From a virus, in IMG/VR virus record IMGVR_UViG_3300027573_000964: a stretch of DNA of 64,000 nucleotides, one strand, 5' to 3'. The notes beneath the pieces were generated by a model, which saw nothing but the letters and a program-made list of their open reading frames with translations, did no database searches and had not been told where the DNA came from. A program made the translations under genes and the position numbers. Positions within the stretch are counted from its first letter, which is position 1. Each line of letters opens with the position of its first letter. Shown here in pieces: positions 4,552 to 61,292 of this stretch.

Positions 4552-4704
4552 AATATTTATTATCGCCTTTTATTGGTGTTTGTCAAGCTGAATAAGAAAT
4601 TTCTTTACTGGAGTGCCTGTAAATGCACGCTCTCGGAGCTTCTTTACTGGCATATCGTAATTTAATATAACCGAGTATAATTGTCTAATTCCTTGTCCCA
4701 TTTA

Positions 4705-24177: not shown

Positions 24178-24367
24178 TGGAAGCTCGTTCTACTATTCCG
24201 TTTTTTATGTGCAGATTAATTCTATCTAATCTATAATCCATAGTTAGTATATAGCTACTGCCTTCGTAACTACTTACTCTTGGAACAAAACCAAGAACCT
24301 TTATGGCATATCTTGCCAGCCTCATATCAAGGCCTACTATTTGTTGGGCCAATTCTTTTGCTATCAT
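24170..24367 (-). CDS. peptidase inhibitor I78-like small protein, copy 1
   Basis: 65 aa; TMDYRLDRINLHIKNGIVERASIG resembles I78 domain (...DYRxDRLN...G.V.R..xG). Confidence 0.45.
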   Translation of the reverse strand: MIAKELAQQIVGLDMRLARYAIKVLGFVPRVSSYEGSSYILTMDYRLDRINLHIKNGIVERASIG

Positions 24368-35358: not shown

Positions 35359-35544
35359 TTATGGAATAACTATATTATGGGAGAATTCGCAATACTTACC
35401 ACCTGCATACGTATCTCTGAACCACACTTCATATATATGATATGGGTGATATATATGTGGAGGAATGCGCGTAACCTTTAGTTCTTTAAATTGTTTCCCC
35501 TTAAAGAATGAAAGATATATGCTATTCAATACATGATTAGCCAT
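35359..35544 (-). CDS. hypothetical protein
   Basis: 61 aa ORF. Confidence 0.4.
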   Translation of the reverse strand: MANHVLNSIYLSFFKGKQFKELKVTRIPPHIYHPYHIYEVWFRDTYAGGKYCEFSHNIVIP

Positions 35545-35974
35545 TAGTTACTACCTCATTAGCCCACTTCAGTATTTTCTGGATACGCTCACGCGCCAGT
35601 TCCATAGCTTCTTCGTAATTAACCCAACGATATTCGTAGTGTTCAGCCTTACCTATTTCTGGATTGAATGGGAGCTCAATTTCTTTTCGAGTAGTTTCGG
35701 CTATGTAATAAGTTGCTACCTTACCCTTGCCATAAGGTTCGGTCTCTCTACTTACCTTGCCCCATTTGAAGTTTAATTCGGCGGGTTTAATAGTCGTTTC
35801 TTCTTCAACTTCACGCAGAGCGGCTTGCATCTTTGTCTCGCCATCTTCTGCTTTTCCCTTTGGAAAATCCCAATAGTCATCATCGGCGCGCAATAAAAGA
35901 AACTTATATTCGCCTTTCTCTAATCTGACTGGAATAACGCCGGCCGATATTATATGCTTGCTCACCTTACTCAT
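35537..35974 (-). CDS. Nudix hydrolase
   Basis: ORF 35537..36112 trimmed to internal Met MSKVSK to remove overlap; Nudix box GKAEDGETKMQAALREVEEETTI. Confidence 0.8.
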   Translation of the reverse strand: MSKVSKHIISAGVIPVRLEKGEYKFLLLRADDDYWDFPKGKAEDGETKMQAALREVEEETTIKPAELNFKWGKVSRETEPYGKGKVATYYIAETTRKEIELPFNPEIGKAEHYEYRWVNYEEAMELARERIQKILKWANEVVTNG

Positions 35975-36239
35975 AATCTCTCCAGCAGTATTCATCACCT
36001 TCGGCAACAACTTCGTTAGTAGTTTTACGTGTGCCGTCTTCAAGCTCCACTCGACATAGTGTTGAAATATGGTGAGTTGGTGCGTGGCGGGTAATTTCCC
36101 TAGTACAAACAAGAACTTGTTTAACTTTCTTACAAATGACCGGCCTCGTGTATTGATAAATTAGCATTCCAATAAGGGTCGATAAGCTAACAAAGATAAT
36201 AGCTAAAAGAACCTTAATTTCATTTGGCGTTTCTTTCAT
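35967..36239 (-). CDS. hypothetical membrane protein
   Basis: 90 aa; TM helix VLLAIIFVSLSTLIGMLIY. Confidence 0.45.
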   Translation of the reverse strand: MKETPNEIKVLLAIIFVSLSTLIGMLIYQYTRPVICKKVKQVLVCTREITRHAPTHHISTLCRVELEDGTRKTTNEVVAEGDEYCWRDYE

Positions 36240-43797: not shown

Positions 43798-43872
43798 TGG
43801 CGCCCCGAGGAGGAATCGAACCCCCGACGCACCGATTTAGAGTCAGCCGCTCTGCCGCTGAGCTACCGGGGC
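43798..43872 (-). tRNA. tRNA with anticodon CUA (amber/UAG-reading suppressor-type tRNA; Lys-like anticodon arm)
   Basis: RC GCCCCGG-TA-GCTC-AGCGGCA-GAGC-G-GCTGA-CTCTAAA-TCGGT-GCGTC-GGGGG-TTCGATT-CCTCC-TCGGGGC-G-CCA; U33, anticodon C34-U35-A36, A37. Confidence 0.75.
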
Positions 43873-44090: not shown

Positions 44091-44365
44091 CTTATAGCGA
44101 ACCAGTATTCATTCATTTCTTTTAGAAACTTTTTACTTATAGTATAGTCGCTATCACTACCAATAACAGAATCAATACCGCACTTAGGGCATAGTGCGGT
44201 ATCTCCTGCGTCTATCCATTCTTTAATCTCACTGAACTTAAAATGGTTGCAGCAATAAAAACACCCTATAACTGCACTATTTTTTAGCTCTTCTTTATGA
44301 TTGGAAGAATGTTCATGAGCCTGTATTATCTTCTCTTGGTTCGCCAAGTTCAACCTCTGGTTCAT
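44087..44365 (-). CDS. hypothetical zinc-binding protein
   Basis: 92 aa; CFYCCNH...CPKCG. Confidence 0.4.
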   Translation of the reverse strand: MNQRLNLANQEKIIQAHEHSSNHKEELKNSAVIGCFYCCNHFKFSEIKEWIDAGDTALCPKCGIDSVIGSDSDYTISKKFLKEMNEYWFAIR

Positions 44366-46020: not shown

Positions 46021-47148
46021 CTAATGAAACTCGCTGTTCTTTTTATCTAGCTTGAAGGTCTCGCTTACATATTTTAATATAACGCGACCACATCCTGGAT
46101 ATTTTCTTTCACGCTTGGGCTTTATTACTATGCCCTCACGAATGAACTTCTTTCCGTTATATTCATCAACAGCTTCGGATAATTTAGTAACAGCAATACT
46201 CCAGGGGCCTCTATAAGCAACTGATACCGTAGGCAGGTTGTGTGCCATACAGGTATAAACTACTTTGTCCCAATCCAAGTATTCTCCATCAACCATAATA
46301 TCGAATACACGAAGTTCTAATTCACCTTGAGGTATTCCATAATCATACCCAGTTTGAATACCAGGCCCAATGATTTCCCCAAAAATAGTTACTTCAGATA
46401 CACCATCAGATAACTCTTTTGTGATGTTGCGTAAATCATACTTATCAGCAACTCGCCAATAAGTATCGTTTATGTCTGTTCCTCTTTTAGACTTTTGTCT
46501 AATAGTGTTGTGAGAGCCAACAAGGGATTCCATATTAGGAACGCTAAAGCCAAAGAAAGATTTAACTTTCTCCCACCGTGTATAAGACTTTTTAGGGCGT
46601 TTGACATAGCCACACCGGAAGTTCGTTCCGTGATATTTAACGGTGGCTATGACTTCCTCGCCTTCTACGAAGTTACGAGGATACTTTTTAAAGCTTTCGA
46701 TGTCAGTATATTTCTTAAAGTTCTCGTTAGTATAGTGATGATTGATGCCCTTTGACTTAAAAGCACTCTGACCTCTTGGAGGTGGAGGCTCATATTTAGT
46801 TACGCCTAAATACTCTGTAACATCTTGGTCTTCTTTGATAAGTTCGGGCGGCAACCACGCACTGGGGGTTAAACAAAGTCCGTCAGAAAATACGCCACGA
46901 ATTTTAGTGCATCTAATACGACCCTCTTTAACTTCTATTTTTTGAGTAGTAGTTAAATAGATTCTAATATTCTCTGGAACTACACTGTTTTCTGGAATGA
47001 ATAAAGCAAGGTCGCCGCTTTTAAATTGGTCTTTGCCAACAATAGCAGCAAATCCACCTTCGCCGCCTATAGTAGCTATCTCTAACTTATCAGCGTTAGG
47101 ATGTGGAACAATCTCCACTTTTGATACTTTTACACTTACGGTACTCAT
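46021..47148 (-). CDS. Rnl2-family RNA ligase fused to N-terminal Myf/EMAP-type tRNA-binding domain
   Basis: 375 aa; N-terminus VKVSKVEIVPHPNADKL...IVGK...GDLALF...IRGVFSDGLCLT = tRNA_bind (Trbp111/CsaA-like) signature; then TVKYHGTNFRCGYV = Rnl2 motif I (KxHGxN) and EVTIFGEIIGPGIQ = motif III. Confidence 0.75.
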   Translation of the reverse strand: MSTVSVKVSKVEIVPHPNADKLEIATIGGEGGFAAIVGKDQFKSGDLALFIPENSVVPENIRIYLTTTQKIEVKEGRIRCTKIRGVFSDGLCLTPSAWLPPELIKEDQDVTEYLGVTKYEPPPPRGQSAFKSKGINHHYTNENFKKYTDIESFKKYPRNFVEGEEVIATVKYHGTNFRCGYVKRPKKSYTRWEKVKSFFGFSVPNMESLVGSHNTIRQKSKRGTDINDTYWRVADKYDLRNITKELSDGVSEVTIFGEIIGPGIQTGYDYGIPQGELELRVFDIMVDGEYLDWDKVVYTCMAHNLPTVSVAYRGPWSIAVTKLSEAVDEYNGKKFIREGIVIKPKRERKYPGCGRVILKYVSETFKLDKKNSEFH

Positions 47149-49116: not shown

Positions 49117-50044
49117 TTAATTCTTTCGGGGCCAATTTTCTAAACTCGGTCATCATGCTATTATATACTGGCTGATATTTATCTTTATAATACTGCCAGT
49201 TATTCTCAGGATTTTCTACTATTTCTCTCCAATAGTTATTTGCGGCAGAATAATCACTTATCCTACCGTCTCTGGCTATTTGGATTCCAAAGTTAATTAT
49301 CCTTAAAGAATGAAATAAGCTCTTCTTACCTATATAGGGATTGAAATCTTTTTCAACTGTTAATTTCTTTTTCGCTTTAACAAAACTATTGGAAGCCTTT
49401 TCGGATATAGAGCGACGAAGAATATCTTTCCTGAATATATAATCATTGAAATTAATACTACTATATAATATATTCTTTGTTGGAAGAAATGCACATTCTA
49501 AAGCATCTATCTCGTGCAAAGCTATTCGACTTAAAAACTCTACCAGATTATAAATATTTATATTAACTGGTAGGTTTATTTCACTTTGTTCAACTTTAAT
49601 TTCCTTATTAGGAATTGGTTCATCAACCACTAATATATAATCAAAGTCGGACTGTTCAGTGGCACATCCATACACTTGAGAGCCATATTGGTATAAGCCA
49701 AATATTTTTCTATCATCTATGCCTTCGCTATTAAGTATTTTGATAAGCGTAGATAAGGTAGGCTCTGAACTATACATATCTATAAATGGCGCTGTCCTAT
49801 TTATAAGCTTTGTTTGCCAGTAATTAGTCACATCGAATGTTTTGCTATATAGGGAATAGAAATGGGCATTCCATATATGTGATATACTACCGGGTTGATT
49901 CGCTAACAAGTATTCCCAATAGAAATTTCTAAAGTTAATTTTAGGATGAGCGTCTTGTAGAAGTCTGATTAAGTATGAGACCTTAACAGAATCTTGTAAT
50001 TCTTTATCTAAATCCATTTGGAACCAACACTTGAAGCGGCTCAC
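49103..50044 (-). CDS. Pol-beta superfamily nucleotidyltransferase (function unknown)
   Basis: 313 aa; YGSQVYGCATEQSDFDYILVVD NTase motif. Confidence 0.5.
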   Translation of the reverse strand: MSRFKCWFQMDLDKELQDSVKVSYLIRLLQDAHPKINFRNFYWEYLLANQPGSISHIWNAHFYSLYSKTFDVTNYWQTKLINRTAPFIDMYSSEPTLSTLIKILNSEGIDDRKIFGLYQYGSQVYGCATEQSDFDYILVVDEPIPNKEIKVEQSEINLPVNINIYNLVEFLSRIALHEIDALECAFLPTKNILYSSINFNDYIFRKDILRRSISEKASNSFVKAKKKLTVEKDFNPYIGKKSLFHSLRIINFGIQIARDGRISDYSAANNYWREIVENPENNWQYYKDKYQPVYNSMMTEFRKLAPKELNEEE

Positions 50045-50888
50045 CCAAATATATTTTAACTTCCGAGCCTCTATTAAATGGTCGTTCTTCCCATGAGTCT
50101 ATGCTTATGTGCCCATCATTGTCGTTTAGTGAATAGACCTTTATCTCTTCGCCTTCTTCTAACCAACCGCTATGTGGTGAACTTCTAGCACCTTGGCTAT
50201 ATGCTTCTGTAGTAAGGAATGAGGCAACCTTATCCTTAGGTTCCCAAGTAGAAGTTACTCCATCGCTGAGAGCTGATTTATACCAGCCAGTAGAACCCGC
50301 GCCAGTTGCCACTATTAGACCAGAACATTTTTGTTCTATTTCTTGTCCCTTATATACCAGCACATGACGAGACATATATTTACGCAAACGCTCACCAAGA
50401 AAATACTCACTGGTAGCTGGAGTAAGTTTTGCTCCATCCAAAGTTGCTTCTAATCTAGCCCAGCTCTCTATATTAAAATCGTTGAAGTCTAATGCTTCAA
50501 CCAAATCATATACATCTTGCTCGGTCTTGATAGCGCATCTTGTTAAACATCCAGAGCTTCTATCTGGGTCCGAATTAATACCAAGTATGGGCGTAGAATG
50601 AACGAAGTGACTTGCGTAGGTGAAGGAATTATCTCCACCTAATATAATAATCAAGTCGTATAAATTAACCGCAACTTTAGGAACATCCTCTAACATGACT
50701 ATGTTGCACTGAAAAGCGGATGTGAATAGTTTCCTAACCGCCAACTGCTTTTCGTGACTCTTTAATATAGCCTCAACATTAGCCCGCTCTTTAGAATACT
50801 TGGCTAATATTTGGTCTTGGCTTTGACCAGAGCATTTCATCTCCCATTCGAGCTTGGAATACTTGGCTACTATTAAAGCGTTCATCAT
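50004..50888 (-). CDS. NAD kinase-like protein (PpnK / DAGK_cat fold)
   Basis: 294 aa; ILGGDNSF (GGDG-like) and IVATGAGSTGWYKSA (cf. NadK ATPTGSTAYSLSAGGP). Confidence 0.45.
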   Translation of the reverse strand: MMNALIVAKYSKLEWEMKCSGQSQDQILAKYSKERANVEAILKSHEKQLAVRKLFTSAFQCNIVMLEDVPKVAVNLYDLIIILGGDNSFTYASHFVHSTPILGINSDPDRSSGCLTRCAIKTEQDVYDLVEALDFNDFNIESWARLEATLDGAKLTPATSEYFLGERLRKYMSRHVLVYKGQEIEQKCSGLIVATGAGSTGWYKSALSDGVTSTWEPKDKVASFLTTEAYSQGARSSPHSGWLEEGEEIKVYSLNDNDGHISIDSWEERPFNRGSEVKIYLGEPLQVLVPNGFR

Positions 50889-50889
50889 A

Positions 50890-51246
50890 TTATAAGTCGT
50901 CTGCCGTTACCGTATCGTTTATCTTTTTCTTGTCGAACTTCTTCTTGAGACGCAAGTATTCTCGAAGCTCATGCTCTTCTAAGTTCTTGCTCTTTGCCTC
51001 TTCCTTCGAAACACGTTCGGTTATCTCTGTCTGGTTTTCCTTGCGGACACCATACAAGAATAGGGAAGTAACCCCTAAAGCAGTTTCAATCCCGAACTCC
51101 AGGCGGTCGAATGCTTTGTGAGCATTCTTAAACCTAAGCTCCTCTAGCTTTTCTAAGAACACCTTGGACTCAACCTGAGTTCCTAGCCTCACTATCTCTT
51201 CGATTTTCTCAGAGACATCTTGAGGGTCTTTATTAACCTCTGCCAT
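50890..51246 (-). CDS. hypothetical protein
   Basis: 118 aa. Confidence 0.5.
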   Translation of the reverse strand: MAEVNKDPQDVSEKIEEIVRLGTQVESKVFLEKLEELRFKNAHKAFDRLEFGIETALGVTSLFLYGVRKENQTEITERVSKEEAKSKNLEEHELREYLRLKKKFDKKKINDTVTADDL

Positions 51247-51248
51247 GA

Positions 51249-52091
51249 CTATTTCGTCCTCCGTTTAAAACTCTTAACATAGTTCTCTGCGTCTTTTTCA
51301 GCTGCTTTTGAGTGTTCTAATTGAAACTCAATCAACCTCTTGCGTATTTTATTGCTTTCATAATCATTACAATCTGTTAGTTCTTTAATTCTATCATCAG
51401 ATACTAATGGCTGCAATGCCTGAATGGCCTTTGGGTTCATATCTAGTATCAATTGTATCATACTCATATGATATGTAAAATCGAAACTGTCAAATATGTT
51501 CCTATCCTTGCCAGAGGCATCGGCCATACTAACCAATATAGCATACTTCCAGTCGTCACCAAGATGTCTAATGAACTTACCTATGGTCTTGCGCGAAGAC
51601 GGACACTTCTCGTTAGTAGGAACATAGCTAGGATTAACCATCCTAGCACCGTCAATGAGCAGCTTCACTCTGTTAATTTCTCTTTCAGTTACATCAGAGA
51701 AACTCTTTAGAATATACTCAGCTGCCTTCAAACTATACTCTTCGTGACCAATATAAGTGGTTCTAGTCCTACCACCAACAGTTTTCTTGCCATGAACTTT
51801 GGTATTTAGCTTACCCAAATCATGGAATAAGATAGCACAATTCATAGCGAAACGGTCTTGGCTGCTAGTGTCTGGAAAGTATTTAGAATAGATTTTTTGT
51901 AGATTGCCAAGTGCCTCAAGTGAATGCTCAAACACATTCAGCTTGTGCCAAGGCGTATTCTGATCCATCTCCCAAGCCAAATAGCCTTCTGGAAACTTGA
52001 ATATATTATACAGTTGATTCTGTTCTTTGAGTGCCAATACGCTACTAACTGGGTCCTGGCTGGTCATAAGAGTTCTAATAGTCTCGGTCAT
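51249..52091 (-). CDS. HD-domain phosphohydrolase
   Basis: 280 aa; WHKLNVFEHSLE ... AILFHDLGK (HD motif, CCA-enzyme-HD-like). Confidence 0.6.
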   Translation of the reverse strand: MTETIRTLMTSQDPVSSVLALKEQNQLYNIFKFPEGYLAWEMDQNTPWHKLNVFEHSLEALGNLQKIYSKYFPDTSSQDRFAMNCAILFHDLGKLNTKVHGKKTVGGRTRTTYIGHEEYSLKAAEYILKSFSDVTEREINRVKLLIDGARMVNPSYVPTNEKCPSSRKTIGKFIRHLGDDWKYAILVSMADASGKDRNIFDSFDFTYHMSMIQLILDMNPKAIQALQPLVSDDRIKELTDCNDYESNKIRKRLIEFQLEHSKAAEKDAENYVKSFKRRTK

Positions 52092-52410
52092 GATATATCT
52101 CTACTGTCTGTTCTGGGCAAGTGAAGCTCCAGTACTTATTGTAAGCCTCTTCATACATCTTTTTCCATCTGTCTAGCACATCTGGCCCGTCGCATTTTTC
52201 GCACACTAGAGCATTACTCATACCCCATTTTTTGCCGAATATGTCTGTAAATGTACTGTTATCTGAAAAGACAAAACGCCAGTAGTCATTCAACTCAAAC
52301 TTATGGCCACACATATAACATCTAAAATGTGAATTATCTCTTTGTCCAGACCATTTCATTTTCAAGTCTTGTTCAGTAACTCGTCTTGGTTTTTGGTCGG
52401 TAAAGCTCAT
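52075..52410 (-). CDS. hypothetical zinc-binding protein
   Basis: 111 aa; CYMCGH...CEKCDG. Confidence 0.45.
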   Translation of the reverse strand: MSFTDQKPRRVTEQDLKMKWSGQRDNSHFRCYMCGHKFELNDYWRFVFSDNSTFTDIFGKKWGMSNALVCEKCDGPDVLDRWKKMYEEAYNKYWSFTCPEQTVEIYHDRDY

Positions 52411-52601
52411 TTACGTCTTTCTAAATAGGCCAATCTAGTAAGCAAAAGAAATAACAAAGTAAATCCCATAACTAATCGTGTGACTATGTTAATGTTACCG
52501 CCGATAAATAAAACAGCCATAGCACTTATAAAGTATAAGAACCTTTTTGGTTCTGGCAGTCTATCGAACCAGCGATAGAGTTTATATACTATTTCTAACA
52601 T
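52407..52601 (-). CDS. hypothetical membrane protein
   Basis: 64 aa; hydrophobic. Confidence 0.4.
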   Translation of the reverse strand: MLEIVYKLYRWFDRLPEPKRFLYFISAMAVLFIGGNINIVTRLVMGFTLLFLLLTRLAYLERRK

Positions 52602-52956
52602 GGTCTAGAAAATCTAATACCTGTTGTTGTGTTCTTCTTGCGGCGTCGTTAAAAGTCCAAAGGCATTGGAAATCATTTTTACTTGGTAGGCAACCTTCTG
52701 CATATTTACTAGCAGCATAATATACCGACTTGTCCCGCTTACCGAAAAGATTTCTAGCTGAGCGTTCAAGAGCACCGTCTAAACAAAAGTGAGTTGCCTT
52801 CTTACTTTCAATATCAACAAATCCACCATTTGCTGATTTGGCAAAACTCTTTTGGCACCAGCCCTTAACTAAAAGTTTATAGGCCCCATCATAAACTTTC
52901 TTCCAATTTTTCTGATATAATTCTGGGCTTATCTTTGTTTTCTTCTTCGTAGTCAT
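52582..52956 (-). CDS. hypothetical protein
   Basis: 124 aa. Confidence 0.5.
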   Translation of the reverse strand: MTTKKKTKISPELYQKNWKKVYDGAYKLLVKGWCQKSFAKSANGGFVDIESKKATHFCLDGALERSARNLFGKRDKSVYYAASKYAEGCLPSKNDFQCLWTFNDAARRTQQQVLDFLDHVRNSI

Positions 52957-53192
52957 AACTTCATCTTTCTATATTAAACTCGTCTTTCATAAACAAGTCA
53001 AATGGAATAACAAATTGCTTTGGTCTTTTATCGCCTTCGTGTATATGCCAAGTATTACTATCGGCACTTACAAAGTCTTTCCTAATTGTACTGCACCCAC
53101 AATACACCGCACGGCCCATCATAACCCAGACCTTTTTACTTGGTGGTCGTATTATATAATGTTCGTATAGTGCCTTGACTATATCTTTATAA

Positions 53193-53570
53193 TCAGATTT
53201 CGTATAAATGGTCTAATCCCAACGCATCTAAAATCTCACAACAATCTCTAATGCTAAAGTAATCCATTATGTCGGCGTAGAACAACATCTCTTTTATCTG
53301 CTCATCCGTTATGGTATGTGAAGACAATATCATGTAGAAGTGTTCGCCATTATAAGTTATACGAAGTTCTTTCTCAAGTCGAGTGATACCAAATTTCTGA
53401 CGGGTGGGTTCCCTTTCGGAGGTCTTTTGTCCACTCGGCGGTATAGGCAAATGAAATATTTGACCAGAAGGAGCTTTGCCATCCTTCATCGTTGCAGATA
53501 ACTCGGAAGTCGTATCCTTCTCCGTCTGCTGCGAAGAGTCCTGCTGAACCGCGGCCGGTGTTGATGGCAT
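53193..53570 (-). CDS. hypothetical protein (true start uncertain; may start at internal Met or be joined to upstream ORF by frameshift)
   Basis: 125 aa. Confidence 0.35.
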   Translation of the reverse strand: MPSTPAAVQQDSSQQTEKDTTSELSATMKDGKAPSGQIFHLPIPPSGQKTSEREPTRQKFGITRLEKELRITYNGEHFYMILSSHTITDEQIKEMLFYADIMDYFSIRDCCEILDALGLDHLYEI

Positions 53571-53736
53571 TGTCGATAGCCTCTTTTAACTTTAGTAGCG
53601 CATCCTTGTTTGCTACTATGAAGGCCTCACCATGATTATCGTATTGCGGATAAACATGCATGAGAGGCATATTGTCCTGCTCATCTTTATTTAAGTGAGC
53701 AGAAGCATTAACGAAACCGTTATCATTATCACTCAT
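53374..53736 (-). CDS. hypothetical protein (overlaps next ORF in another frame by ~200 nt)
   Basis: 120 aa. Confidence 0.4.
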   Translation of the reverse strand: MSDNDNGFVNASAHLNKDEQDNMPLMHVYPQYDNHGEAFIVANKDALLKLKEAIDNAINTGRGSAGLFAADGEGYDFRVICNDEGWQSSFWSNISFAYTAEWTKDLRKGTHPSEIWYHST

Positions 53737-54419
53737 TACATATCCATAAAAGAACGACGAGGTAAAATAGGCCCTGTCGGTAGGATGCCCTTGGGATTAG
53801 TCGTATATCCCTCGAACCATGGCGCCGTAGATGGCATTGATAGTCTAACAAACTGTCTGCTTACCGGCTTATATTGGGGTATAGATTCATGAACACATAG
53901 ACCACCCATCCAATAAGCAACATTGGCTTTGAGTTCTATTGGCTCTTTAAGCTGAGGTCGCAAATGTTCGCAGTCACCTTCATCACCGGGAAAGCCAACG
54001 AAGTCTTGGTTCCATGCTCTACAGCCAACGTGACTGGCTATTGAAATCATTCCACTTTCAACAGAACCCCAACCACCGCCGCCACCCCATGATCCTGGAT
54101 TAGTAGTGCCGCCCCAAGAACCACCTCCACCCCACGAGCCGGCTGATAGTTTAGGTCCGATGCCATCTACATGTAAGCCAGCTCGTCTATGCGTGCGACC
54201 ATCGGCAACAATCTTTTCGTCTATAGTTAAATAAGCTACGCCAGTCTTACACGGCGCAACTTTGCACAGAGCGTCATAGGCTTCACGCCAATGTGACAGG
54301 TCATCCGGTAGAGAGTCCAAGTCAGACAACAATACGGGCAACATCATAACTCTTGTGTCGGTGAAGGCGGGTAGTTGAATAGAGCCCTCTTCTCTAATAG
54401 GACTATTGAACATTTGCAT
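53736..54419 (-). CDS. hypothetical protein with SWGGGG repeats
   Basis: 227 aa; SAGSWGGGGSWGGTTNPGSWGGGGGWGS. Confidence 0.5.
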   Translation of the reverse strand: MQMFNSPIREEGSIQLPAFTDTRVMMLPVLLSDLDSLPDDLSHWREAYDALCKVAPCKTGVAYLTIDEKIVADGRTHRRAGLHVDGIGPKLSAGSWGGGGSWGGTTNPGSWGGGGGWGSVESGMISIASHVGCRAWNQDFVGFPGDEGDCEHLRPQLKEPIELKANVAYWMGGLCVHESIPQYKPVSRQFVRLSMPSTAPWFEGYTTNPKGILPTGPILPRRSFMDM

Positions 54420-55050
54420 TTAGCTTCACCAACAACGAATCGCCCTTCTCGATAATCTTTACGCCTTTTTCTTTCATTTCTGCTACGGCCTTAGCACCAT
54501 CTTCTGGTTGAAGGTTAACAGCTCTACAACCGTCTAGCACTAAATTAGTCTTGAAACCCAAGCTAACAGCATCTAATGCGGTAAATTTCACGCAGTAGTC
54601 AGTAGCTAGGCCGAGTACGAACAACTCAGTAGCACCAACATCTCGTAAATAACCAGCGAGCCCAGTTGGATGCTTACGTCCGTTGTCAAAGAAACCACTG
54701 TAGCTATCTACTTCTGGATCCATTCCTTTACGGAATATAGCAGCAAGCCTACCGCCCAACAAGTTTTTGTGGAACTCTGCGCCTTTGCTGCCCCATGTAC
54801 AATGCTCTGGCCACCACACTTGAGGTAATCCATTGAGTGTGCCTAATGTACCAACCTTAACATCTTTGTTATTAGAAGCAAAGCTCTTGTGCGTCGGAGG
54901 ATGATAGTCTTGAGTTGCTACTATCAAATCAAACTTACCCTCAACTATGAGACGGTTAGCTACGGGAACAACGGCATCACCATCTTTGACAGCCAATGCC
55001 CCGCCATTACAGAAATCGTTTTGTATATCTACGAGTACTAATGTCTTCAT
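54403..55050 (-). CDS. pncA: nicotinamidase / pyrazinamidase (isochorismatase family)
   Basis: 215 aa; LVLVDIQNDF (Asp), K, LGLATDYCV (Cys) catalytic triad context. Confidence 0.8.
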   Translation of the reverse strand: MKTLVLVDIQNDFCNGGALAVKDGDAVVPVANRLIVEGKFDLIVATQDYHPPTHKSFASNNKDVKVGTLGTLNGLPQVWWPEHCTWGSKGAEFHKNLLGGRLAAIFRKGMDPEVDSYSGFFDNGRKHPTGLAGYLRDVGATELFVLGLATDYCVKFTALDAVSLGFKTNLVLDGCRAVNLQPEDGAKAVAEMKEKGVKIIEKGDSLLVKLNANVQ

Positions 55051-55062
55051 CTTGCTTCTCCA

Positions 55063-55272
55063 TTATTCGTGTTCCAATCCCCATTTAGAATTGTTCCACA
55101 ATCTTTCATAAATATAATATGTTACGAACGCTATAGTTGTTCCCGCTATTGATATACGCAGAGATAAAGTCATATCTCCGGTAAAGGCGTATGATATTAT
55201 TGTTCCTCTTGCAAAGGCAATAACTCTCCATATTGTTGCTTTTAATAGTGTTCTCTTAATAGTCTCTTTCAT
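55063..55272 (-). CDS. small membrane protein
   Basis: 69 aa; two hydrophobic segments. Confidence 0.4.
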   Translation of the reverse strand: MKETIKRTLLKATIWRVIAFARGTIISYAFTGDMTLSLRISIAGTTIAFVTYYIYERLWNNSKWGLEHE

Positions 55273-57256
55273 TATTTACTATGGAGGGCCTATCCCACTC
55301 TCCACTCACCAGGCTTTTCAATTCTATTAATTCTTGTTCAAATCCACTTGATATAATAGGAAATCTGCACCAAGTTTTTGGATCCAAGTTCTCATCGTCT
55401 AAGTGGAAAGATGGCGCGTATCGCTCGCGCTTCCACTGGTTTCTGCACCACAACTTAAAGAATTTTTCTATCCAAGCACCAAGCTGAACCTTATCGTACA
55501 AGCCCTGCATAAGCAAAAATATTTCTGTAGGAGAGCGCTTATCTCTTATTGCGTGTTTCTCTAATTGATCTAATACACCGTAGGGCATTAAATCATCTTC
55601 ATCTCTTTGATTCTTTTCTGTAGGTCTAAGTTCAGCGGTAGGCTCTTGATTATTTACATACGATAAGGCTGGGATAGTAGTTTCTATCTGTCTCAACCAC
55701 ATACGCAAATAATTTTTATCAATACCAGCTATGGGACTTAATCCACCGCAAGTATCTCCGTCCATAGTAGCATAACCTACGGCAGCCTCTGAACGATTGC
55801 TTGTAGCCAATAGGATAGCATTCTTAATGTTGGCAAGCATCCATATTGAAGGGCCGCGAACTCTTGCTTGAATATTCTGTAGCGTTACGTCGTCTTGTTC
55901 CCAAGTAAGTTTGCGGCCGATAGATTTTTCAATCATACCAGTATATAAACTTACAGCTGCTGATATATCCAAATTATGGAACTCTGCACCAAGAGATTCT
56001 GCCACTCTTAAAGCGGCGGTATAAGTAGTGTCCGAACTGTTCTTTGAGCCTTGATATGCGCAAGTTAAGAGTTTGTTAGATATTTCTTTTAAAGCGCTCA
56101 GGTCTTGGATAGAAGATATATAAGCCAGCTTCTTTTTAAAAGCATTCAGACCTATATTATTAATAGCATCCTTGACCATTAAATACACCAGGCTAGATAC
56201 AGCTGATGAATCTGCGCCGCCACTTAAACTTACTACATAGCCATTTGATTTGGCTTTACGCATAAAGTCAAACAGCCCAAGTGATACTGCTTTCTGAAAC
56301 TCTTCGTGCTTCTTGTAAGTTCTATCTGTTCCAGATAAAAATTCTGGAACATGAAACTTCGGATTGAATGAACCACCATTTATGCATAACTCATCGTCTT
56401 CCACATTAGGAACAAAGCTGGCGGTTCTGGAACGGCTTGTGTTATTAGAATGAACATCTACAACAGCGCTGGTGACAAGAAAGTCTTCATAAGAAAATCT
56501 CTCTCCTGAACTTACTATATTGCCATTGGTGGCTATGATAGTATCACCATCATATATAACACGACCAGATTCATTGCCTAATAGATTGGCGTACACATAT
56601 ACGCAATTAAAAGCTCTGGAGCCTTCAACTACGAACCCTTTGCGTATCTCATGCTTGCCAAATGCAAAATGGCTAGCACTAGGATTTAGAATTATATCTA
56701 CACCCCGTGAAGCAAGTTGTCTGCCAGGCCTATCATATACCCAGGCATCTTCACAAATCTCAAATCCAACCTTGATAGGATTAGCATTCCCTAAAGAAAA
56801 ATATATATCACCTATGGGATACTGCCTACAATTAAAATTCAGAGTAGATTTTATTCCTTTGGGCCACGCCTTAAACCAACGAGGTTCATAGTGAATACCG
56901 TCGCCAGCAAGATATTTCTTAGCAACGAAGCCGAGTATCTGCCCGCTGTTAATCATACATGCTACATTAAAAATAGCACCGTTCAACTCAACTGGAAGAC
57001 CAACTGACACCGCCATACCTGTACTGGTGGTATGCTGTGCGATATTTAACAGACACTCACCTGCGCGACGAAGGACATCTTTAGAATGAAACATATCCTC
57101 GCAGCCGTATCCAGTAATGCAAAGCTCTGGCAAACATAACAGTTCTACACCAGTTTCTTTTGCGGACTTTATAGCTTGGATAATATTATTAGTATTGTGC
57201 TCCCAAGCCATAGGCGTTTGATTTAACGCCACAGCTGCTACTTTAATGCCCTTCAT
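55256..57256 (-). CDS. nadE: glutamine-dependent NAD+ synthetase (N-terminal nitrilase/CN-hydrolase domain + NAD synthase domain)
   Basis: 666 aa; LCLPELCITGYGCED, FEICEDAW (nitrilase E-K-C); VVSLSGGADSSAV PP-loop. Confidence 0.85.
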   Translation of the reverse strand: MKGIKVAAVALNQTPMAWEHNTNNIIQAIKSAKETGVELLCLPELCITGYGCEDMFHSKDVLRRAGECLLNIAQHTTSTGMAVSVGLPVELNGAIFNVACMINSGQILGFVAKKYLAGDGIHYEPRWFKAWPKGIKSTLNFNCRQYPIGDIYFSLGNANPIKVGFEICEDAWVYDRPGRQLASRGVDIILNPSASHFAFGKHEIRKGFVVEGSRAFNCVYVYANLLGNESGRVIYDGDTIIATNGNIVSSGERFSYEDFLVTSAVVDVHSNNTSRSRTASFVPNVEDDELCINGGSFNPKFHVPEFLSGTDRTYKKHEEFQKAVSLGLFDFMRKAKSNGYVVSLSGGADSSAVSSLVYLMVKDAINNIGLNAFKKKLAYISSIQDLSALKEISNKLLTCAYQGSKNSSDTTYTAALRVAESLGAEFHNLDISAAVSLYTGMIEKSIGRKLTWEQDDVTLQNIQARVRGPSIWMLANIKNAILLATSNRSEAAVGYATMDGDTCGGLSPIAGIDKNYLRMWLRQIETTIPALSYVNNQEPTAELRPTEKNQRDEDDLMPYGVLDQLEKHAIRDKRSPTEIFLLMQGLYDKVQLGAWIEKFFKLWCRNQWKRERYAPSFHLDDENLDPKTWCRFPIISSGFEQELIELKSLVSGEWDRPSIVNNERDY

Positions 57257-57267
57257 TCACTTTCCTA

Positions 57268-58176
57268 TTAAGCAGTTTCTTTGGCTACCGCTTGAGCTAA
57301 TAGACGTTTAACATCAGTGACACCGCCCGGAGTGTGGTCCAAGAATACCGTATTGGTCTTGGACGCAGCAGCGATGTCCTTTAGGGTATCAAAGTATTGA
57401 GTCATTAATACCAGGCTCATAACGTCAGCGGCTGTACTACCTGGAATGCTCTTCTGAAATTCATCAACAGAGGTGCGCAAGCCATCTACAATTGCCTTGC
57501 GTTGGTCAGCGATACCTTGTCCTTGGAGCTTCTTTGAGATAGCTTCGGCTTCAGCTTGCTTAACCTTGAGAGTCTTTTCGGCCTCACCCTTCTCTTCAGC
57601 AGCTTGTCTATCACGCTGTGCAGCGTTGATAGCGTTCATTGAATCCTTGACGTGCTTGTCTGGGTCGATGTCGGTCACTAGAGCCTTAACGATAGAATAG
57701 CCGAAGTCATCCATAACCTCGGACAGCTCCTTTTTAACAGCGTTAGCAACATCGTCCTTACGCTCGAATACTTGGTCAAGAGTTAGCTTTGGAATCTCTG
57801 CACGTACTAGGTCGAATACATATGAAGTAATCTGTTGCTTTGGATTATTCAACTTATAGTAAGCATCAACAACCTTCTCTGGAAGTACGTTGTATTGAAC
57901 AGATACTTTAGTATTAACGAAGACGTTATCCTTGGTCTTGGTTTCAACTTCTACATCTAACTGCAAGATACGCAGCGGCATTATGCTGACTACTGAATCT
58001 ATAAGAGGAAATTTTAAATTAAGTCCAGCGCTAGCTAACTTCTTATACTTACCAAAGCGTTCTACTACGGCTACAGTTTGCTGGCTGACAGTGAAGAAAG
58101 TTCCAAACATAAATATTAGCCCGACGATGGCCGCGACTATTCCGCCGGCGACCATTAGAATTGTATTGAGTTCCAT
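57268..58176 (-). CDS. SPFH/band-7 (prohibitin/HflC-like) membrane protein
   Basis: 302 aa; N-terminal TM, SPFH core, coiled-coil C-terminus. Confidence 0.75.
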   Translation of the reverse strand: MELNTILMVAGGIVAAIVGLIFMFGTFFTVSQQTVAVVERFGKYKKLASAGLNLKFPLIDSVVSIMPLRILQLDVEVETKTKDNVFVNTKVSVQYNVLPEKVVDAYYKLNNPKQQITSYVFDLVRAEIPKLTLDQVFERKDDVANAVKKELSEVMDDFGYSIVKALVTDIDPDKHVKDSMNAINAAQRDRQAAEEKGEAEKTLKVKQAEAEAISKKLQGQGIADQRKAIVDGLRTSVDEFQKSIPGSTAADVMSLVLMTQYFDTLKDIAAASKTNTVFLDHTPGGVTDVKRLLAQAVAKETA

Positions 58177-58185
58177 TTTATTTCC

Positions 58186-59625
58186 TTATTTACGCGCTAG
58201 TATTAGCTCGTTTCTTAATTTGTTTAATTCCTTATCTAAATAAACATTTGGACGCCTGAAGATGTTTTGGTCTATGTTTATAGATTTTGCTCTGCTAAAG
58301 TTAATATCTGGGGAAGTATATATTAAATTGCCTCTTACATATATTGGCGCAAGTAATTTGTATTCTGTATATGGTAGCGCTGAAAATCTTTGTTCAAAAT
58401 TGTCATCATCTTGGTCAGCGTCCAATGCTACAAGTTCTCCAGAAAATCCAAGCTCTGTATCATATATAACATCTCTAACTGAAGAGTCAGTTTGATTAGT
58501 TCGTCTCAATACTTGTTGAGCACCAGGAATTGAAGTCTTGATTAAACTGTCAGATAGTTTTATCTTTGGCACACTTTTGCCGGTGGAGTCTTCTAATACA
58601 GCCAACTTATAAACCCCGCCCAGAGCAGGTTGGTCATAAGATGTAATGAGCTTTGTTCCGACTCCCCATGCGTTTATCTTGGCACCATCAGCTTTTAATT
58701 TAGCTATCTGGTCTTCATCCAAATCATTGCTAGCCACAATAATAGTATTCTTAAAGTCGGCGGCATCTAACATTTGCCTGGCTATTTTGCTTAACTCACA
58801 TAAGTTTCCAGAGTCCAAGCGAATGCCATGTAGGTTATGTCCCAACTTACGAAGAGTTTTGCCAGCTTCTATAGCGGACATTACACCACCCACAGTGCCG
58901 TAAGTATCAACTAGCAAAGTTGCATTGTTAGGCATTGCTTCTACATACTTAGTCATAGCTTCTAGTTCTGAATCAAAGCTCATAATCCAAGAATGTGCAT
59001 GAGTTCCCTTGACTGGTATATTGAATAATTTACCAGCTAAGACATTCGAGGTTCCAGAACAACCACCCACATAAGCAGCGCGCGAAGCAGTTAGCGCTCC
59101 ATCGAATCCCTGCGCTCTACGCAAACCAAAATCAAATACCACGTCACCTTTAGCTGTCTTATAAGTTCTGTAAGCCTTTGTGGCGATAAGCGTATTAAAA
59201 TTAATGAGATTGAGTAGCGGGCTTTCTAATAGCTGACATTGGTCTAACGACCCAGTTATACTTAACAGTGGTTCGTGAGCATAGACAGCAGTACCTTCTT
59301 CAATAGCATTTACATCACAAGTGAATTTAAGCCCACCCAAATAATCTATAAACTCTTTGCTAAATAGAGGGCAACCATCATTACCAGTCAGGGTAGAAAG
59401 AAATTCACAATCGCTAGTATCAAACCACTTGCCCTTTAAAGTTTCTATAAACTCAATAGCAGGTTGTAGCCCACATGCTACAGCGAAACCATTATTAAAT
59501 GGAGCCTTGCGAAAGAACAAGTTGAAGGTCGCACGACGACTACTCATACCGTGTTTCCAATAACCATAGGCCATCGTAAGTTGGTATAAGTCTGTCATTA
59601 ACCCCAAAGAGGTGTTATATATCAT
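58186..59625 (-). CDS. pncB: nicotinate phosphoribosyltransferase (NAPRT-type)
   Basis: 479 aa; MTDLYQLTMAYGYWKHG..., GLRRAQGFDGALTASRAAYVGG...SNVLAGKLFNIPVKGTHAHSWIMSF closely parallels NAPRT LLTDLYQATMALGYW / GLRRAQGPDGGLTAS / SNVLAG...GT(L/H)AHS. Confidence 0.85.
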   Translation of the reverse strand: MIYNTSLGLMTDLYQLTMAYGYWKHGMSSRRATFNLFFRKAPFNNGFAVACGLQPAIEFIETLKGKWFDTSDCEFLSTLTGNDGCPLFSKEFIDYLGGLKFTCDVNAIEEGTAVYAHEPLLSITGSLDQCQLLESPLLNLINFNTLIATKAYRTYKTAKGDVVFDFGLRRAQGFDGALTASRAAYVGGCSGTSNVLAGKLFNIPVKGTHAHSWIMSFDSELEAMTKYVEAMPNNATLLVDTYGTVGGVMSAIEAGKTLRKLGHNLHGIRLDSGNLCELSKIARQMLDAADFKNTIIVASNDLDEDQIAKLKADGAKINAWGVGTKLITSYDQPALGGVYKLAVLEDSTGKSVPKIKLSDSLIKTSIPGAQQVLRRTNQTDSSVRDVIYDTELGFSGELVALDADQDDDNFEQRFSALPYTEYKLLAPIYVRGNLIYTSPDINFSRAKSINIDQNIFRRPNVYLDKELNKLRNELILARK

Positions 59626-59629
59626 TTTA

Positions 59630-60094
59630 TTAAATTACTTTGTGCCCGCAGTTAGTGCATTTATCGGCCCATAGGTCAGGCATTTTTAGTGCCATTCTCA
59701 TTTGACCTAAGGTTGGTTCTAGATTAACGGCCTTTGGATTTCCAATAGCGTTGGCCTTCCACCATTGAGCGTTAATCTTATTGGAAGAAACTTTTTCTTG
59801 AACTCTATTAAAATCTTTGACACATACGCTGCTTTGTCCAAATTGAGAGGCGGTTATATCTACTAGATAATTCTCGCACTTCACAAACCAATGGCCATAG
59901 CCAGATACAATCTTAGCATCGAGACCAGCCTCTCGTAGATTGTGAGAGAGTATAATGGATGAATGTGCGCACCAACCACCAAGATGGGGCGCTGGCTTAC
60001 CCATTAATGTCACAAGCTCTTTACTGCCTTCAACAAACTTGCGTGTTTGTCTAGCTATCTTAACAATTTGTTTGCGTATCTGTTGCTTGTGCAT
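59630..60094 (-). CDS. hypothetical protein with C-terminal zinc ribbon
   Basis: 154 aa; CTNCGHK. Confidence 0.5.
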   Translation of the reverse strand: MHKQQIRKQIVKIARQTRKFVEGSKELVTLMGKPAPHLGGWCAHSSIILSHNLREAGLDAKIVSGYGHWFVKCENYLVDITASQFGQSSVCVKDFNRVQEKVSSNKINAQWWKANAIGNPKAVNLEPTLGQMRMALKMPDLWADKCTNCGHKVI

Positions 60095-60527
60095 TTCTTA
60101 ATTCCTCTCTTAATTTCATTAGAAGTTTTCCTAAACGATTCTTTCCTGTACCGTCAGAGCCACAGCCCCAATAGTAATCAATTGGACTATCCTCTACCAG
60201 CACAGCATCGCCAGTAGAGAGAAGTATTTGCTTAGCATCTTCATTCTGTGTAAATTTAGCTAGCAATACCTTGGTCATCACATTCTCTTTCATGTGATCC
60301 CAATTTTGTTTCATGGGTAACTTGCGGTCGCGCCCCATCATAGCAGCACGCATAGGCCCATTACATTTTCTTACCTGCTCTTTTAATTCGGGGTCGTCAA
60401 ACTTTTGTGCTTGATAGTAGTGTTCTGAGGTAGGCCATGTCTTACCATCTAGCTCAACAGGATGTTTGGAAAAGTTAGATAAACATCCGTATTCAGTTTT
60501 TGTACTATAGAACTTTATGGTTTCCAT
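60060..60527 (-). CDS. NADAR (YbiA/DUF1768) domain protein
   Basis: 155 aa; FYSTKTEYGCLSNFSKHPVELDGKTWPTSEHYYQAQKF. Confidence 0.75.
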   Translation of the reverse strand: METIKFYSTKTEYGCLSNFSKHPVELDGKTWPTSEHYYQAQKFDDPELKEQVRKCNGPMRAAMMGRDRKLPMKQNWDHMKENVMTKVLLAKFTQNEDAKQILLSTGDAVLVEDSPIDYYWGCGSDGTGKNRLGKLLMKLREELRNAQATDTQTNC

Positions 60528-61072
60528 CTTTTACCAAATGCACTGATAGTTATATCTTTTTCTTTAACAAATTTGATTAGACTTTTTCTGTCATTAAACA
60601 CTAAAGCCATTTCGTTCTTATTTCGGGTTTCATTTATGATAATGAAATTTGTAGTTTCCAGCCTTCCGAAATGCTTAAATATTTTTGCTAAAGTTTCATC
60701 AGTAAGAATTAACGATGGGCGATACTCGGATGATAATTGTCTATTTAGATTGGGCTCATCATTTATATACACAGATACCATTCTATATAATACATCAATA
60801 CTTTTAACATCGAATGAAAAGAAATCTAAAATAGATGATTGTAATTTTAGTTCTATTTTAGGAATTGTTTCTTCTAACAAGTCAATTAGTTCTTGCTCAG
60901 GCCTGATATCGATTGGTTCAGGTGATGGGTTATTAAATACTCCGGCCATTACCATCATATTAAAACCGCCAATAAAACCAACATTAGGACGTAGTTTCTT
61001 TAAGTAAGCACTAGCTACCCTAAAATGATCCCAGGTATTGATAATACTTTTAGGAAGTATAGTTTTCTGCAT
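60515..61072 (-). CDS. hypothetical protein
   Basis: 185 aa. Confidence 0.5.
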   Translation of the reverse strand: MQKTILPKSIINTWDHFRVASAYLKKLRPNVGFIGGFNMMVMAGVFNNPSPEPIDIRPEQELIDLLEETIPKIELKLQSSILDFFSFDVKSIDVLYRMVSVYINDEPNLNRQLSSEYRPSLILTDETLAKIFKHFGRLETTNFIIINETRNKNEMALVFNDRKSLIKFVKEKDITISAFGKRWKP

Positions 61073-61292
61073 CTACCCACTCAGCTATAGTGTGGTCGCC
61101 GTGTCCATGGATAGCCATACAGTCTGATACTGAGTTGTGTATTTCAATAGAACGATGGGTTCCAACAGTCCATTCGATAACAACCTTACCAGATGGCAGC
61201 ACGATTCCGAAAGCGACATATCCAGTTCCACTAACACCGGAGTCGTCTACGTTCCTCTTTAGTACGAATCTCGAACCTATTTCTTTACCCAT
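61050..61292 (-). CDS. hypothetical protein
   Basis: 80 aa. Confidence 0.4.
   Translation of the reverse strand: MGKEIGSRFVLKRNVDDSGVSGTGYVAFGIVLPSGKVVIEWTVGTHRSIEIHNSVSDCMAIHGHGDHTIAEWVDAENYTS

Follow-up and report, generated by a model that had tools for sequence, protein, structure and literature searches.

The locus described here lies within a 64-kb stretch of DNA (the window), which forms part of a contig of 468,446 bp. The genes of the island, named in an earlier note on this sequence, were found at the positions given there; they are co-directional, closely packed and all located on the minus strand, as are the other genes whose coordinates are given below. The island consists of two tight runs of genes. 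In the first, which extends from a NADAR-domain gene to the gene p120, neighbouring genes overlap or are separated by no more than 12 nt. It is followed by a gap of 251 nt and by the second run, which ends at a NAD kinase gene. The gap contains the best match in the region to a sigma-70-like promoter (53349..53377, minus strand; 11/12 consensus), though promoter matches in the region overall are not above shuffled expectation. The analysis established which genes the island contains, the families to which they belong, their catalytic motifs and folds, and the conservation of their linkage.

In the profile searches proposed by the earlier note, its assignments of PncA, NAPRT, NadE and NADAR passed curated HMM cut-offs. 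The predicted PncA nicotinamidase (54403..55050) would deamidate nicotinamide to nicotinic acid (step 1). It matches the Pfam family Isochorismatase (1.8e-19) and the NCBIfam nicotinamidase model NF008623 (273.8 bits, cut-off 174), and contains the triad D8, K108 and C153 as well as the metal ligands D48/H50/H83. In step 2, nicotinic acid would be coupled with PRPP, to give NaMN, by a type II NAPRT (PncB) of 479 aa (58186..59625), which carries the domains NAPRTase_N (1.1e-31) and NAPRTase (6.3e-11) and exceeds the cut-offs of NF006695 (494.8 versus 469) and TIGR01513 (474.7 versus 297.4). The product of 55256..57256, combining CN_hydrolase (2.7e-24) and NAD_synthase (2.8e-32) domains, is a glutamine-dependent NAD+ synthetase, NadE, which would amidate NaAD to NAD+ (step 4). 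It passes TIGR00552 (96.6 bits, cut-off 63.65) and does not reach the full-length NadE equivalogs (274.9 versus a cut-off of 479); its motifs include E44 (PELC), C168 (EICED) and an SGGADS P-loop.

The enzyme of step 3, NadD, had been considered missing. This holds for the window, in which no HIGH-type nucleotidyltransferase was revealed by phmmer or by motif, but not for the genome: a NadD of 192 aa, which would adenylate NaMN to NaAD, is encoded on the minus strand of the same contig approximately 2.2 kb past the end of the window (extrapolated position 66248-66826, corresponding to 2800-3378 of L001 and 6585-7163 of L013). This protein, whose precomputed label is CTP_transf_like, passes the TIGR00482 equivalog (132.5 bits, cut-off 112.45) and carries the motifs GGAFDPPHSGH and ISSTEVR. 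Its gene is separated from the rest of the island by approximately 6.6 kb of unrelated small genes, which counts against the interpretation favoured below. With NadD, the deamidating nicotinamide salvage set (PncA-PncB-NadD-NadE) is complete, and a conversion of nicotinamide to NAD+ can be predicted.

The second run of genes ends with 50004..50888, whose product had been given the weak call NAD-kinase-like. Its score is below the Pfam threshold (22.8 versus 25.5), but the call proved to reflect a genuine NAD kinase fold. A profile built from 32 sequences of the kinase family matched human NADK2 (7r4j) with E=3.9e-25, an AF2 model (pLDDT 94) displays the two-domain NAD kinase fold, and the best 50 Foldseek matches of this model are NAD kinases only, headed by NADK2 (7r4l; TM 0.80). 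Human mitochondrial NADK2 (7r4j, 7r4l, 7n29) is the best match by both profile and structure. The motifs GGDN (84-87) and TGAGSTGW (195-202) are present, the latter in the G-S/T-x-x-W form shared with NADK2, and the catalytic Asp86 of GGDN is invariant across the family. The phage protein differs from NADK2 in several respects: identity is only 17-20%, the protein is shorter (approximately 294 aa, without the NADK2 insertions), GGDN replaces GGDG, and the NE motif, aligned to ALNEVFIGE of NADK2, reads SE. Because of these last two substitutions, NAD+ can be proposed as the substrate only tentatively. Judged by these models, the protein is a NADK2-like NAD kinase, which is predicted to phosphorylate part of the NAD+ to NADP+ (step 5).

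The neighbourhood of the kinase is conserved, which shows that the gene belongs to the island. NAD salvage genes are linked to it in L071, L072, L076, L078, L081, L082 and L084; within the NADK2-like subfamily (at least 34% identity), at most loci with usable flanks such genes lie no more than a few kb away (L076, L078, L081, L082, L084). Immediately upstream of the kinase gene, at a distance of 1 nt, lies a gene for a protein of 118 aa (p118; 50890..51246), which has no match in Pfam or PHROG. Homologues of p118 occupy the same position in L072, L076, L077 and L085, making it a conserved partner of the kinase. Since PncA, NAPRT, NadD, NadE and the kinase are all encoded, the phage would possess the entire route from nicotinamide through nicotinic acid, NaMN, NaAD and NAD+ to NADP+.

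The first run starts with a YbiA-like NADAR gene (60060..60527; Pfam NADAR 1e-43, TIGR02464 160.5 bits against a cut-off of 73.7), which encodes a predicted ADP-ribose/N-glycoside hydrolase associated with the pathway; in L066 a NADAR gene is also found 2 kb from the PncA cluster. By far the best match of the protein is E. coli YbiA (2b3w; E=1e-49), and its score with Phage_30_3 (26.9) is under the cut-off of 36. The NADAR fold and a catalytic Glu/Lys pair are common to the island protein, YbiA and AdfN (T4 gp30.3), with E35/K42 spaced like the catalytic pair E36/K43 of T4 AdfN (PMC11825919). While the domain and its catalytic pair were therefore confirmed, the proposal of the earlier note that this protein might reverse DarT-type ADP-ribosylation is weak, because it falls in the YbiA-like clade rather than in one with demonstrated in vivo activity against DarT1 (AdfN-T4-like, archaeal-type and non-YbiA bacterial-type). 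YbiA of E. coli K-12 acts on ADP-ribosyl-guanine in vitro and does not belong to the NADARs able to rescue cells from DarT1 (PMC11125620). In a survey of NADARs, just a single phage NADAR was distantly related to the YbiA-like clade (PMC11825919). The Nudix hydrolase mentioned in the same context is real (Pfam NUDIX 4.8e-18, best NCBIfam matches all sub-threshold) and lies far from the island; its called gene spans 35537..35995 rather than 35537-35974.

Clusters of PncA, NAPRT and NadE genes, in most cases accompanied by a gene for a HIGH-type adenylyltransferase, were identified in large phage or viral contigs (L002, L023, L066, L067, L068, L071). The occurrence of the same enzyme set in many independent contigs indicates that the clustering is not due to chance. 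In the related contig L072 (292 kb), the order NAPRT-NadE-...-PncA-...-p118-NADK is retained with a NAPRT from another subfamily (25% identity); this speaks for selection at the level of function. The enzyme families correspond to those in the pyridine nucleotide cycle of bacteria (PncA-PncB-NadD-NadE). Bins (MAGs) from DPANN archaea and Bdellovibrionota contain clusters of the same type (PncA/NAPRT/NMNAT/NadE/NADK2-like), and the island thus resembles an operon type found in cells. It shares with these bins the linkage to a NADK2-like kinase and an ADP-ribose hydrolase; unlike the cellular clusters, it is placed in a phage genome, among phage-specific small genes, an SPFH gene and a DUF2061 gene.

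Reconstitution of NAD+ by phages is an established means of counter-defence, and three pathways, NARP1, NARP2 and NARP3, have each been shown experimentally to counteract NAD+-depleting defences (bioRxiv 10.1101/2024.02.11.579819; PMC13464706). The earlier note was right that the enzyme set of the island differs from NARP1 (Adps/Namat) and NARP2 (NadV/NMNAT); it also differs from NARP3 (PnuC/NadR, PMC13464706). In NARP2, as in Vibrio phage KVP40 (NadV NAMPT plus NMNAT-Nudix), phage enzymes convert nicotinamide to NAD+, as predicted for the island, and a counter-defence function of this pathway has been shown experimentally. NARP2 is a two-step amidated route via NMN, while that of the island would be a four-step deamidated one via NaMN and NaAD, requiring NadE and glutamine. 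NARP1 and NARP3 are also phage-encoded modules for NAD+ reconstitution, but consist of unrelated protein families and start from other substrates (ADPR and nicotinamide in NARP1, imported nicotinamide riboside in NARP3). A NAMPT query detected no homologue or NAMPT-like match in the window, which also lacks a NadM homologue, and the precomputed Pfam labels assigned to the flanks do not include NAMPT_N. The labels of the annotated 84 kb likewise include neither Pribosyltran/PRPS (NARP1) nor, over approximately 84 kb, PnuC or NadR (NARP3); the NadD protein scored just 17.2 bits with the NadR model.

The suggestion that the module is an undescribed variant appears to hold for the kinase but not for the Preiss-Handler part, since pncB-nadD-nadE clusters have been reported bioinformatically in "NAD-jumbo phages" of the gut (e.g. 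Kuafu_71; Microbiome 2024, PMC11662467). These are defined as phages of more than 200 kb with at least one full NAD+ synthesis pathway (PMC11662467); the contig, with its 468,446 bp and a Preiss-Handler set that is complete as judged from sequence, falls within this definition, and resembles them in the clustering of the genes. The presence of PncA in the cluster shifts the predicted entry point to nicotinamide, in contrast to nicotinic acid in the NAD-jumbo phages, although that survey does refer to phage pncA as well (PMC11662467). The island further differs from their clusters in its linked NADK2-like kinase; NAD kinase, NADP and NADAR go unmentioned in the survey (PMC11662467). No NADK2-like kinase is present in GenBank phages, IMG/VR or PHROGs, nor was a published report of one found, so this extension of phage NAD+ synthesis appears to be new.

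We consider it probable (about 0.6) that the island is a phage-borne cellular nicotinamide salvage operon combined with a NAD kinase, which would maintain or replenish NAD(P) in infected cells. The module would be expressed in infection, and the five predicted steps would then sustain or restore this pool; we infer the enzymatic activities, the expression and the consequences for NAD(P) levels and defence systems from the features described above. NADase defences of the TIR, SIR2 and SEFIR types release nicotinamide. As this is the predicted entry substrate, the island would act as the deamidating counterpart of NARP2. A point against the preferred interpretation is that NADases could be released from product inhibition when nicotinamide is removed.

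Not all genes between 50004 and 60527 need to take part in such a salvage pathway. That the whole segment is one multi-component system, with membrane proteins handling NAD or niacin, would fit the fact that an SPFH/Band-7 membrane protein (57268..58176; Band_7 8.7e-34, phrog_200) and a small DUF2061 membrane protein (55063..55272; Pfam 1.8e-13) are encoded between genes of the pathway, either overlapping their neighbours or 9-12 nt away from them. We regard this as very unlikely, because neither gene occurs in the clusters of L072, L002, L066, L067, L068 and L071: SPFH is missing between NAPRT and NadE in L072 and L002, and no DUF2061 homologue was found in other phage clusters. The SPFH protein appears to be lineage-specific, and the flanks of its homologues in L004 and L005 (50% identity) contained no detected NAD genes. 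The "SWGGGG" protein (53736..54419), with a divergent Fe(II)/2OG-dioxygenase-like fold and a disordered Gly/Trp insert, has a homologue after PncA inside the NAD cluster of the unrelated phage L023 (56% GC). This protein is nevertheless widespread in phages, L023 is the only other phage with the PncA linkage, and 46 of 48 IMG/VR loci with SWGGGG homologues had no detected NAD genes in the approximately 10 kb of flank examined. The HD-domain protein (51249..52091; a weak pass of Pfam HD, 24.6 bits versus 22) aligns over 278 aa at 42% identity with the C-terminal half (residues 240-514) of a PolyA_pol protein of 514 aa from L071. This homology to a PolyA_pol/CCA-type tRNA nucleotidyltransferase makes it tRNA-related, and it does not belong to the NAD pathway. 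Of the members assumed in the earlier note, the SPFH, DUF2061 and HD proteins are thus not conserved. Still less credible is that the contig is cellular or chimeric and the island a plain cellular salvage operon, even though, outside phage-like contigs, the kinase has its nearest homologues in bins of DPANN and Bdellovibrionota that contain the same cluster, and neither a capsid or terminase gene nor any other phage structural gene appeared in the approximately 84 kb examined. This result for structural genes also counts against the favoured interpretation. The viral identity of the contig, which carries both the island and NadD, is instead suggested by its other gene content: the credible genes of the 64 kb all share one strand, the ORFs are mostly small and without family matches, and an array of 18 tRNAs is accompanied by T4-type RNA ligases, Thg1, GP88, HNH and S21 genes. 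The RNA ligases are closest to those of uncultured huge phages (484-635 kb), and near-identical sequences were assembled independently in three other datasets.

The more serious alternative accepts the same chemistry and assigns it to auxiliary metabolism, i.e. provision of NAD(P) for a long and costly replication in a host whose NAD synthesis is weak or absent or under nutrient limitation, not to immunity evasion. The cluster type, including the NADK2-like kinase, has a housekeeping-like character in the DPANN and Bdellovibrionota bins, the kinase suggests supply of the NADP+ cofactor and not only repair of cleaved NAD+, and in the survey of jumbo phages clusters of this kind are read as supplementing the pathways of the host (PMC11662467). 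Moreover, a four-step route is costly as an emergency response: in comparison with NadV and NMNAT it needs more ATP and twice as many steps, which also counts against the favoured interpretation. On the other hand, NADase defences specifically yield nicotinamide, the precedents NARP1, NARP2 and NARP3 all counter NAD+ depletion, and the neighbourhood is rich in counter-defence and repair-type genes (RNA ligases, tRNAs, Pth, NADAR and precomputed matches to Acb5 and Gad2). A purely auxiliary role seems to us rather doubtful, and an anti-defence role of the salvage operon is plausible. A further point against the favoured interpretation is that no NAD-consuming phage enzyme was seen, and the DNA ligase of the window is of the ATP type. 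The stronger proposal, that a five-enzyme nicotinamide-to-NADP+ module conserved in an uncultivated clade of huge phages constitutes a fourth, deamidating NAD(P)+ reconstitution pathway, defeating NADase immunity and restoring NADP(H) as well as NAD+ with what are apparently the first phage NAD kinases, can be put forward only tentatively and is equally doubtful.

Depletion of NAD+ is among the commonest anti-phage strategies of bacteria. The gain from the present analysis is moderate, since the Preiss-Handler part had already been noted in surveys of jumbo-phage genomes. Our results nevertheless indicate that, besides the three experimentally shown NAD+-rebuilding pathways, the classical four-step deamidating route is also carried in full by huge phages, and that a type of salvage operon known from DPANN and Bdellovibrionota bins turns up in viruses. 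If active, the module would provide a compact five-gene cassette, directly testable in E. coli with Thoeris, DSR or SIR2-HerA. It would also widen the range of counter-defence chemistries and mean that phages manage the NADP pool as well.

We confirmed that the minus-strand genes at 50004-60527 form an NAD salvage island, as the earlier note had observed, and that observation was improved by locating NadD and validating the kinase. The main enzyme and domain assignments were supported by Pfam and NCBIfam, and each island enzyme retains its catalytic motifs, with C153 of PncA and C168 of NadE among the catalytic residues. PncA (54403-55050) matches Pfam Isochorismatase (1.8e-19) and passes the nicotinamidase equivalog model (273.8 bits vs a cut-off of 174), NAPRT (58186-59625) carries the NAPRTase_N and NAPRTase domains and passes NF006695 (494.8 vs 469), and the glutamine-dependent NadE (55256-57256) combines CN_hydrolase with NAD_synthase. 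The SPFH protein (57268-58176; Band_7, 8.7e-34) and NADAR (60060-60527; Pfam, 1e-43) were likewise recognized. A DUF6197 domain match (52582-52956) and a small ORF encoding a DUF2061 membrane protein (55063-55272) lie on the same strand. The Nudix hydrolase outside the island has a genuine domain, although its called gene occupies 35537-35995 and does not end at 35974.

All credible genes between 48 kb and 64 kb are on the minus strand, within a window of uniform composition (GC approximately 38%) and negative GC skew throughout. From NADAR through a 120-aa ORF the genes overlap or are separated by at most 12 nt. This run is followed by a 251-nt gap containing the best promoter-like match of the region, downstream of which lies a second tight gene run with the kinase and a nucleotidyltransferase at its end. 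The promoter and terminator scan revealed no enrichment over shuffled sequence, and the operon boundaries are therefore defined by gene spacing only. Between NADAR (35-nt overlap) and NAPRT (4-nt gap) sits a 154-aa protein (59630-60094) with a weak Pfam YunG match (5e-4) and a Cys...His...Asp pattern which, by eye, resembles a transglutaminase-like fold.

Neither a HIGH-type nucleotidyltransferase nor NAMPT was found within the window. The claim that NadD is missing thus holds inside the window, but not for the genome: a 192-aa CTP_transf_like protein, encoded on the same contig approximately 2.2 kb past the window end (extrapolated position 66248-66826, minus strand), passes the NadD equivalog TIGR00482 (132.5 vs 112.45) and contains the motifs GGAFDPPHSGH and ISSTEVR, with H18 and H21 as catalytic residues. 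With this gene, the four-step route from nicotinamide through nicotinic acid, NaMN and NaAD to NAD+ is complete by gene content. Approximately 4 kb upstream of NadD there is a second Nudix protein (extrapolated 70693-71220; 2191-2718 of contig L013), whose best likeness, below the cut-off, is to NudE, an ADP-compounds hydrolase (9.4e-18); it could process ADP-ribose.

The NAD-kinase-like protein (50004-50888) scored below the Pfam NAD kinase threshold (22.8 vs 25.5); its assignment was upheld by a family profile, an AF2 model and a Foldseek fold search. More than 140 homologues were collected, and a profile of 32 sequences of the family matched human mitochondrial NADK2 (3.9e-25), with weaker matches to bacterial NAD kinases. 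The model has a pLDDT of 94, its best 50 Foldseek matches are all NAD kinases (TM 0.80 to NADK2), and the protein carries the motifs GGDN, SE (instead of NE) and TGAGSTGW. There were zero tblastn matches in 50,697 GenBank phage records, no relative in IMG/VR and no PHROG, so that the kinase could be placed only via metagenome and MAG contigs. A literature search found no report of a phage NAD kinase.

Those contigs connect the kinase with NAD salvage. A 292-kb relative (L072) preserves the order NAPRT-NadE-x-x-PncA ... p118-NADK-NTase ... Rnl1, where p118 (118 aa; 50890-51246 in the window) is the conserved partner encoded immediately upstream of the kinase. On a 481-kb contig (L071), NadE, PncA, an ADP-ribosylglycohydrolase (ARH), a CCA-type enzyme and the kinase all lie inside 11 kb, and at five metagenome loci with the same kinase subfamily (L076, L078, L081, L082 and L084), NAPRT, NadE, PncA or NadD is at most a few kb away. 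No linkage to NAD salvage genes was seen in the phage-like L074 and the cellular L073. Moreover, the kinase occurs in PncA/NAPRT/adenylyltransferase/NadE clusters of bins assigned to Woesearchaeota, Aenigmatarchaeota, Nanoarchaeia and Bdellovibrionota (L156, L162, L163, L167 and L170), where the adenylyltransferase is of the NMN/NaMN type and some clusters include an ARH. These look like a recurrent cellular nicotinamide-to-NADP operon. The conserved linkage across contigs indicates that the kinase belongs to the island, and the clusters in cellular bins suggest that the phage island mirrors a cellular operon type.

The NAPRT of the 292-kb relative (3704-4864, 386 aa) has the same position directly upstream of NadE, but represents another subfamily (25% identity to the window NAPRT). 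That a non-orthologous enzyme has taken its place argues for selection on the activity itself. The CTP_transf_like protein of that relative looks more like CoaD than NadD, which makes completeness of the pathway there uncertain.

Not all genes embedded in the island appear to take part in the pathway. The SPFH protein was rejected as a conserved member because it is missing from all related clusters, as is the DUF2061 protein; SPFH homologues with 50% identity in L004 and L005 have no NAD genes detected nearby. Both are insertions specific to this lineage. The HD protein (51249-52091) was dropped as a candidate NAD/ADPR hydrolase, being 42% identical to residues 240-514 of the intact 514-aa PolyA_pol/CCA-type enzyme of L071 (4076-5620). 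It equals only the C-terminal half of that enzyme; the N-terminal half (polymerase head) was not found in the window. This homology groups it with the tRNA repair genes and not with NAD metabolism.

The SWGGGG protein (53736-54419) has a Fe(II)/2OG-dioxygenase-like fold with a conserved disordered Gly/Trp-rich insert. Its family (phrog_8970; more than 521 homologues, of which the 120 listed lack any precomputed Pfam family) shows invariant H-x-D and R-x-S residues and a second His in at least 90% of sequences. Its location beside PncA recurs in only one of 48 IMG/VR loci (L023), NAD-type genes lie some kb distant in L015, L016 and L032, and 46 of the 48 have no NAD genes detected in their flanks. 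A role as an NAD-linked enzyme was mostly rejected on this survey, and the protein is probably independent of the pathway.

NADAR has matches to E. coli YbiA (1e-49) and to TIGR02464, a riboflavin-intermediate N-glycosidase model. YbiA-type NADARs cleave ADP-ribosyl-guanine in vitro, but K-12 YbiA was not among the NADARs rescuing cells from the DNA ADP-ribosylating toxin DarT1 (PMC11125620). Among the phage NADARs of the AdfN survey, just one was distantly related to the YbiA-like clade (PMC11825919). NAD salvage genes repeatedly have NADAR or ARH enzymes as neighbours, in phages as well as in cells (see also PMC9503650), which makes a role of the window NADAR in ADP-ribose chemistry likely; the case for an anti-DarT role is weak.

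A 468,446-bp ENA metagenome contig (ERZ27267619 k141_116371) encodes the NAPRT protein, and assemblies from a JGI sample (171 kb) and a Logan run (46 kb) contain near-identical stretches. Megablast of the island against GenBank phages gave no nucleotide match; the closest database entries come from uncultured huge phages with genomes of 484-635 kb (approximately 30% protein identity). The gene content is of the huge-phage type (three RNA ligases, Thg1, RlaP, GP88, HNH, peptidyl-tRNA hydrolases and ribosomal protein S21), accompanied by many small ORFs without family matches and 18 tRNA genes (15529-48369, minus strand), 13 of them within approximately 8 kb. No phage structural genes were seen in the approximately 84 kb viewed, and viral identity is therefore deduced from gene content.

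The RNA/tRNA repair set is dense: a T4 Rnl1-type ligase and another two proteins with an RNA_ligase domain are joined by Thg1, RlaP and PTH2 (jointly 44313-45440, 46021-47148, 8779-9438, 6616-7413, 4705-5760 and 24364-25290), with a canonical Pth just beyond the window. One tRNA (43798-43872; labelled Pyl by ARAGORN) has a CTA anticodon of the amber-suppressor type, a kind that in some large phages is linked to the recoding of stop codons. An R2K-clade ATP-grasp protein and a DNA ligase, ATP-dependent and not NAD-dependent, were also identified (25618-26427 and 1378-2709). The proteins at 61050-61292 and 7654-8394 have precomputed Pfam hits to Acb5 (anti-CBASS) and to Gad2 (anti-Gabija); neither was reproduced in a second Pfam search, and both serve as hints only. 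The former protein, of 80 aa, matches phrog_7499 (1.7e-22).

Comparable clusters occur in other phages. Among IMG/VR records, L002 and L003 contain adenylyltransferase ... NAPRT-NadE, a 332-kb sequence (L066) contains NAPRT-NadE-adenylyltransferase-PncA followed 2 kb on by NADAR, a 149-kb sequence of 56% GC (L023) combines NadM-Nudix, NAPRT, PncA, the SWGGGG homologue and NadE, and L067 and L068 carry further comparable clusters. In Bacillus phage G, the NAPRT and NAD synthetase genes are separated by 3 kb. The phage NAD+ pathways shown experimentally are NARP1 (Adps/Namat), NARP2 (NadV/NMNAT) and NARP3 (PnuC/NadR; PMC13464706), and previous surveys of NAD systems in viruses list only NadV, NadM and NadR. 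In 2024, a survey of jumbo phages from the gut described 174 "NAD-jumbo phages" (PMC11662467); this solely bioinformatic study recognized pncB-nadD-nadE clusters as a full Preiss-Handler route. It also mentioned pncA in phages, but neither NAD kinase nor NADAR. Our literature search found no experimental report of a deamidating phage route (phage nicotinamidase, phage NadE).

To conclude, gene content identifies the island as a phage NAD(P) salvage island. The interpretation given in the earlier note is supported in part. The suggestion that it may be an undescribed variant needs qualification, since the type had already been noted in genome surveys; what sets it apart from the surveyed NAD-jumbo clusters is the nicotinamidase entry step together with the conserved NADK2-like kinase. 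Such an island may serve either immune evasion or the general supply of cofactors.
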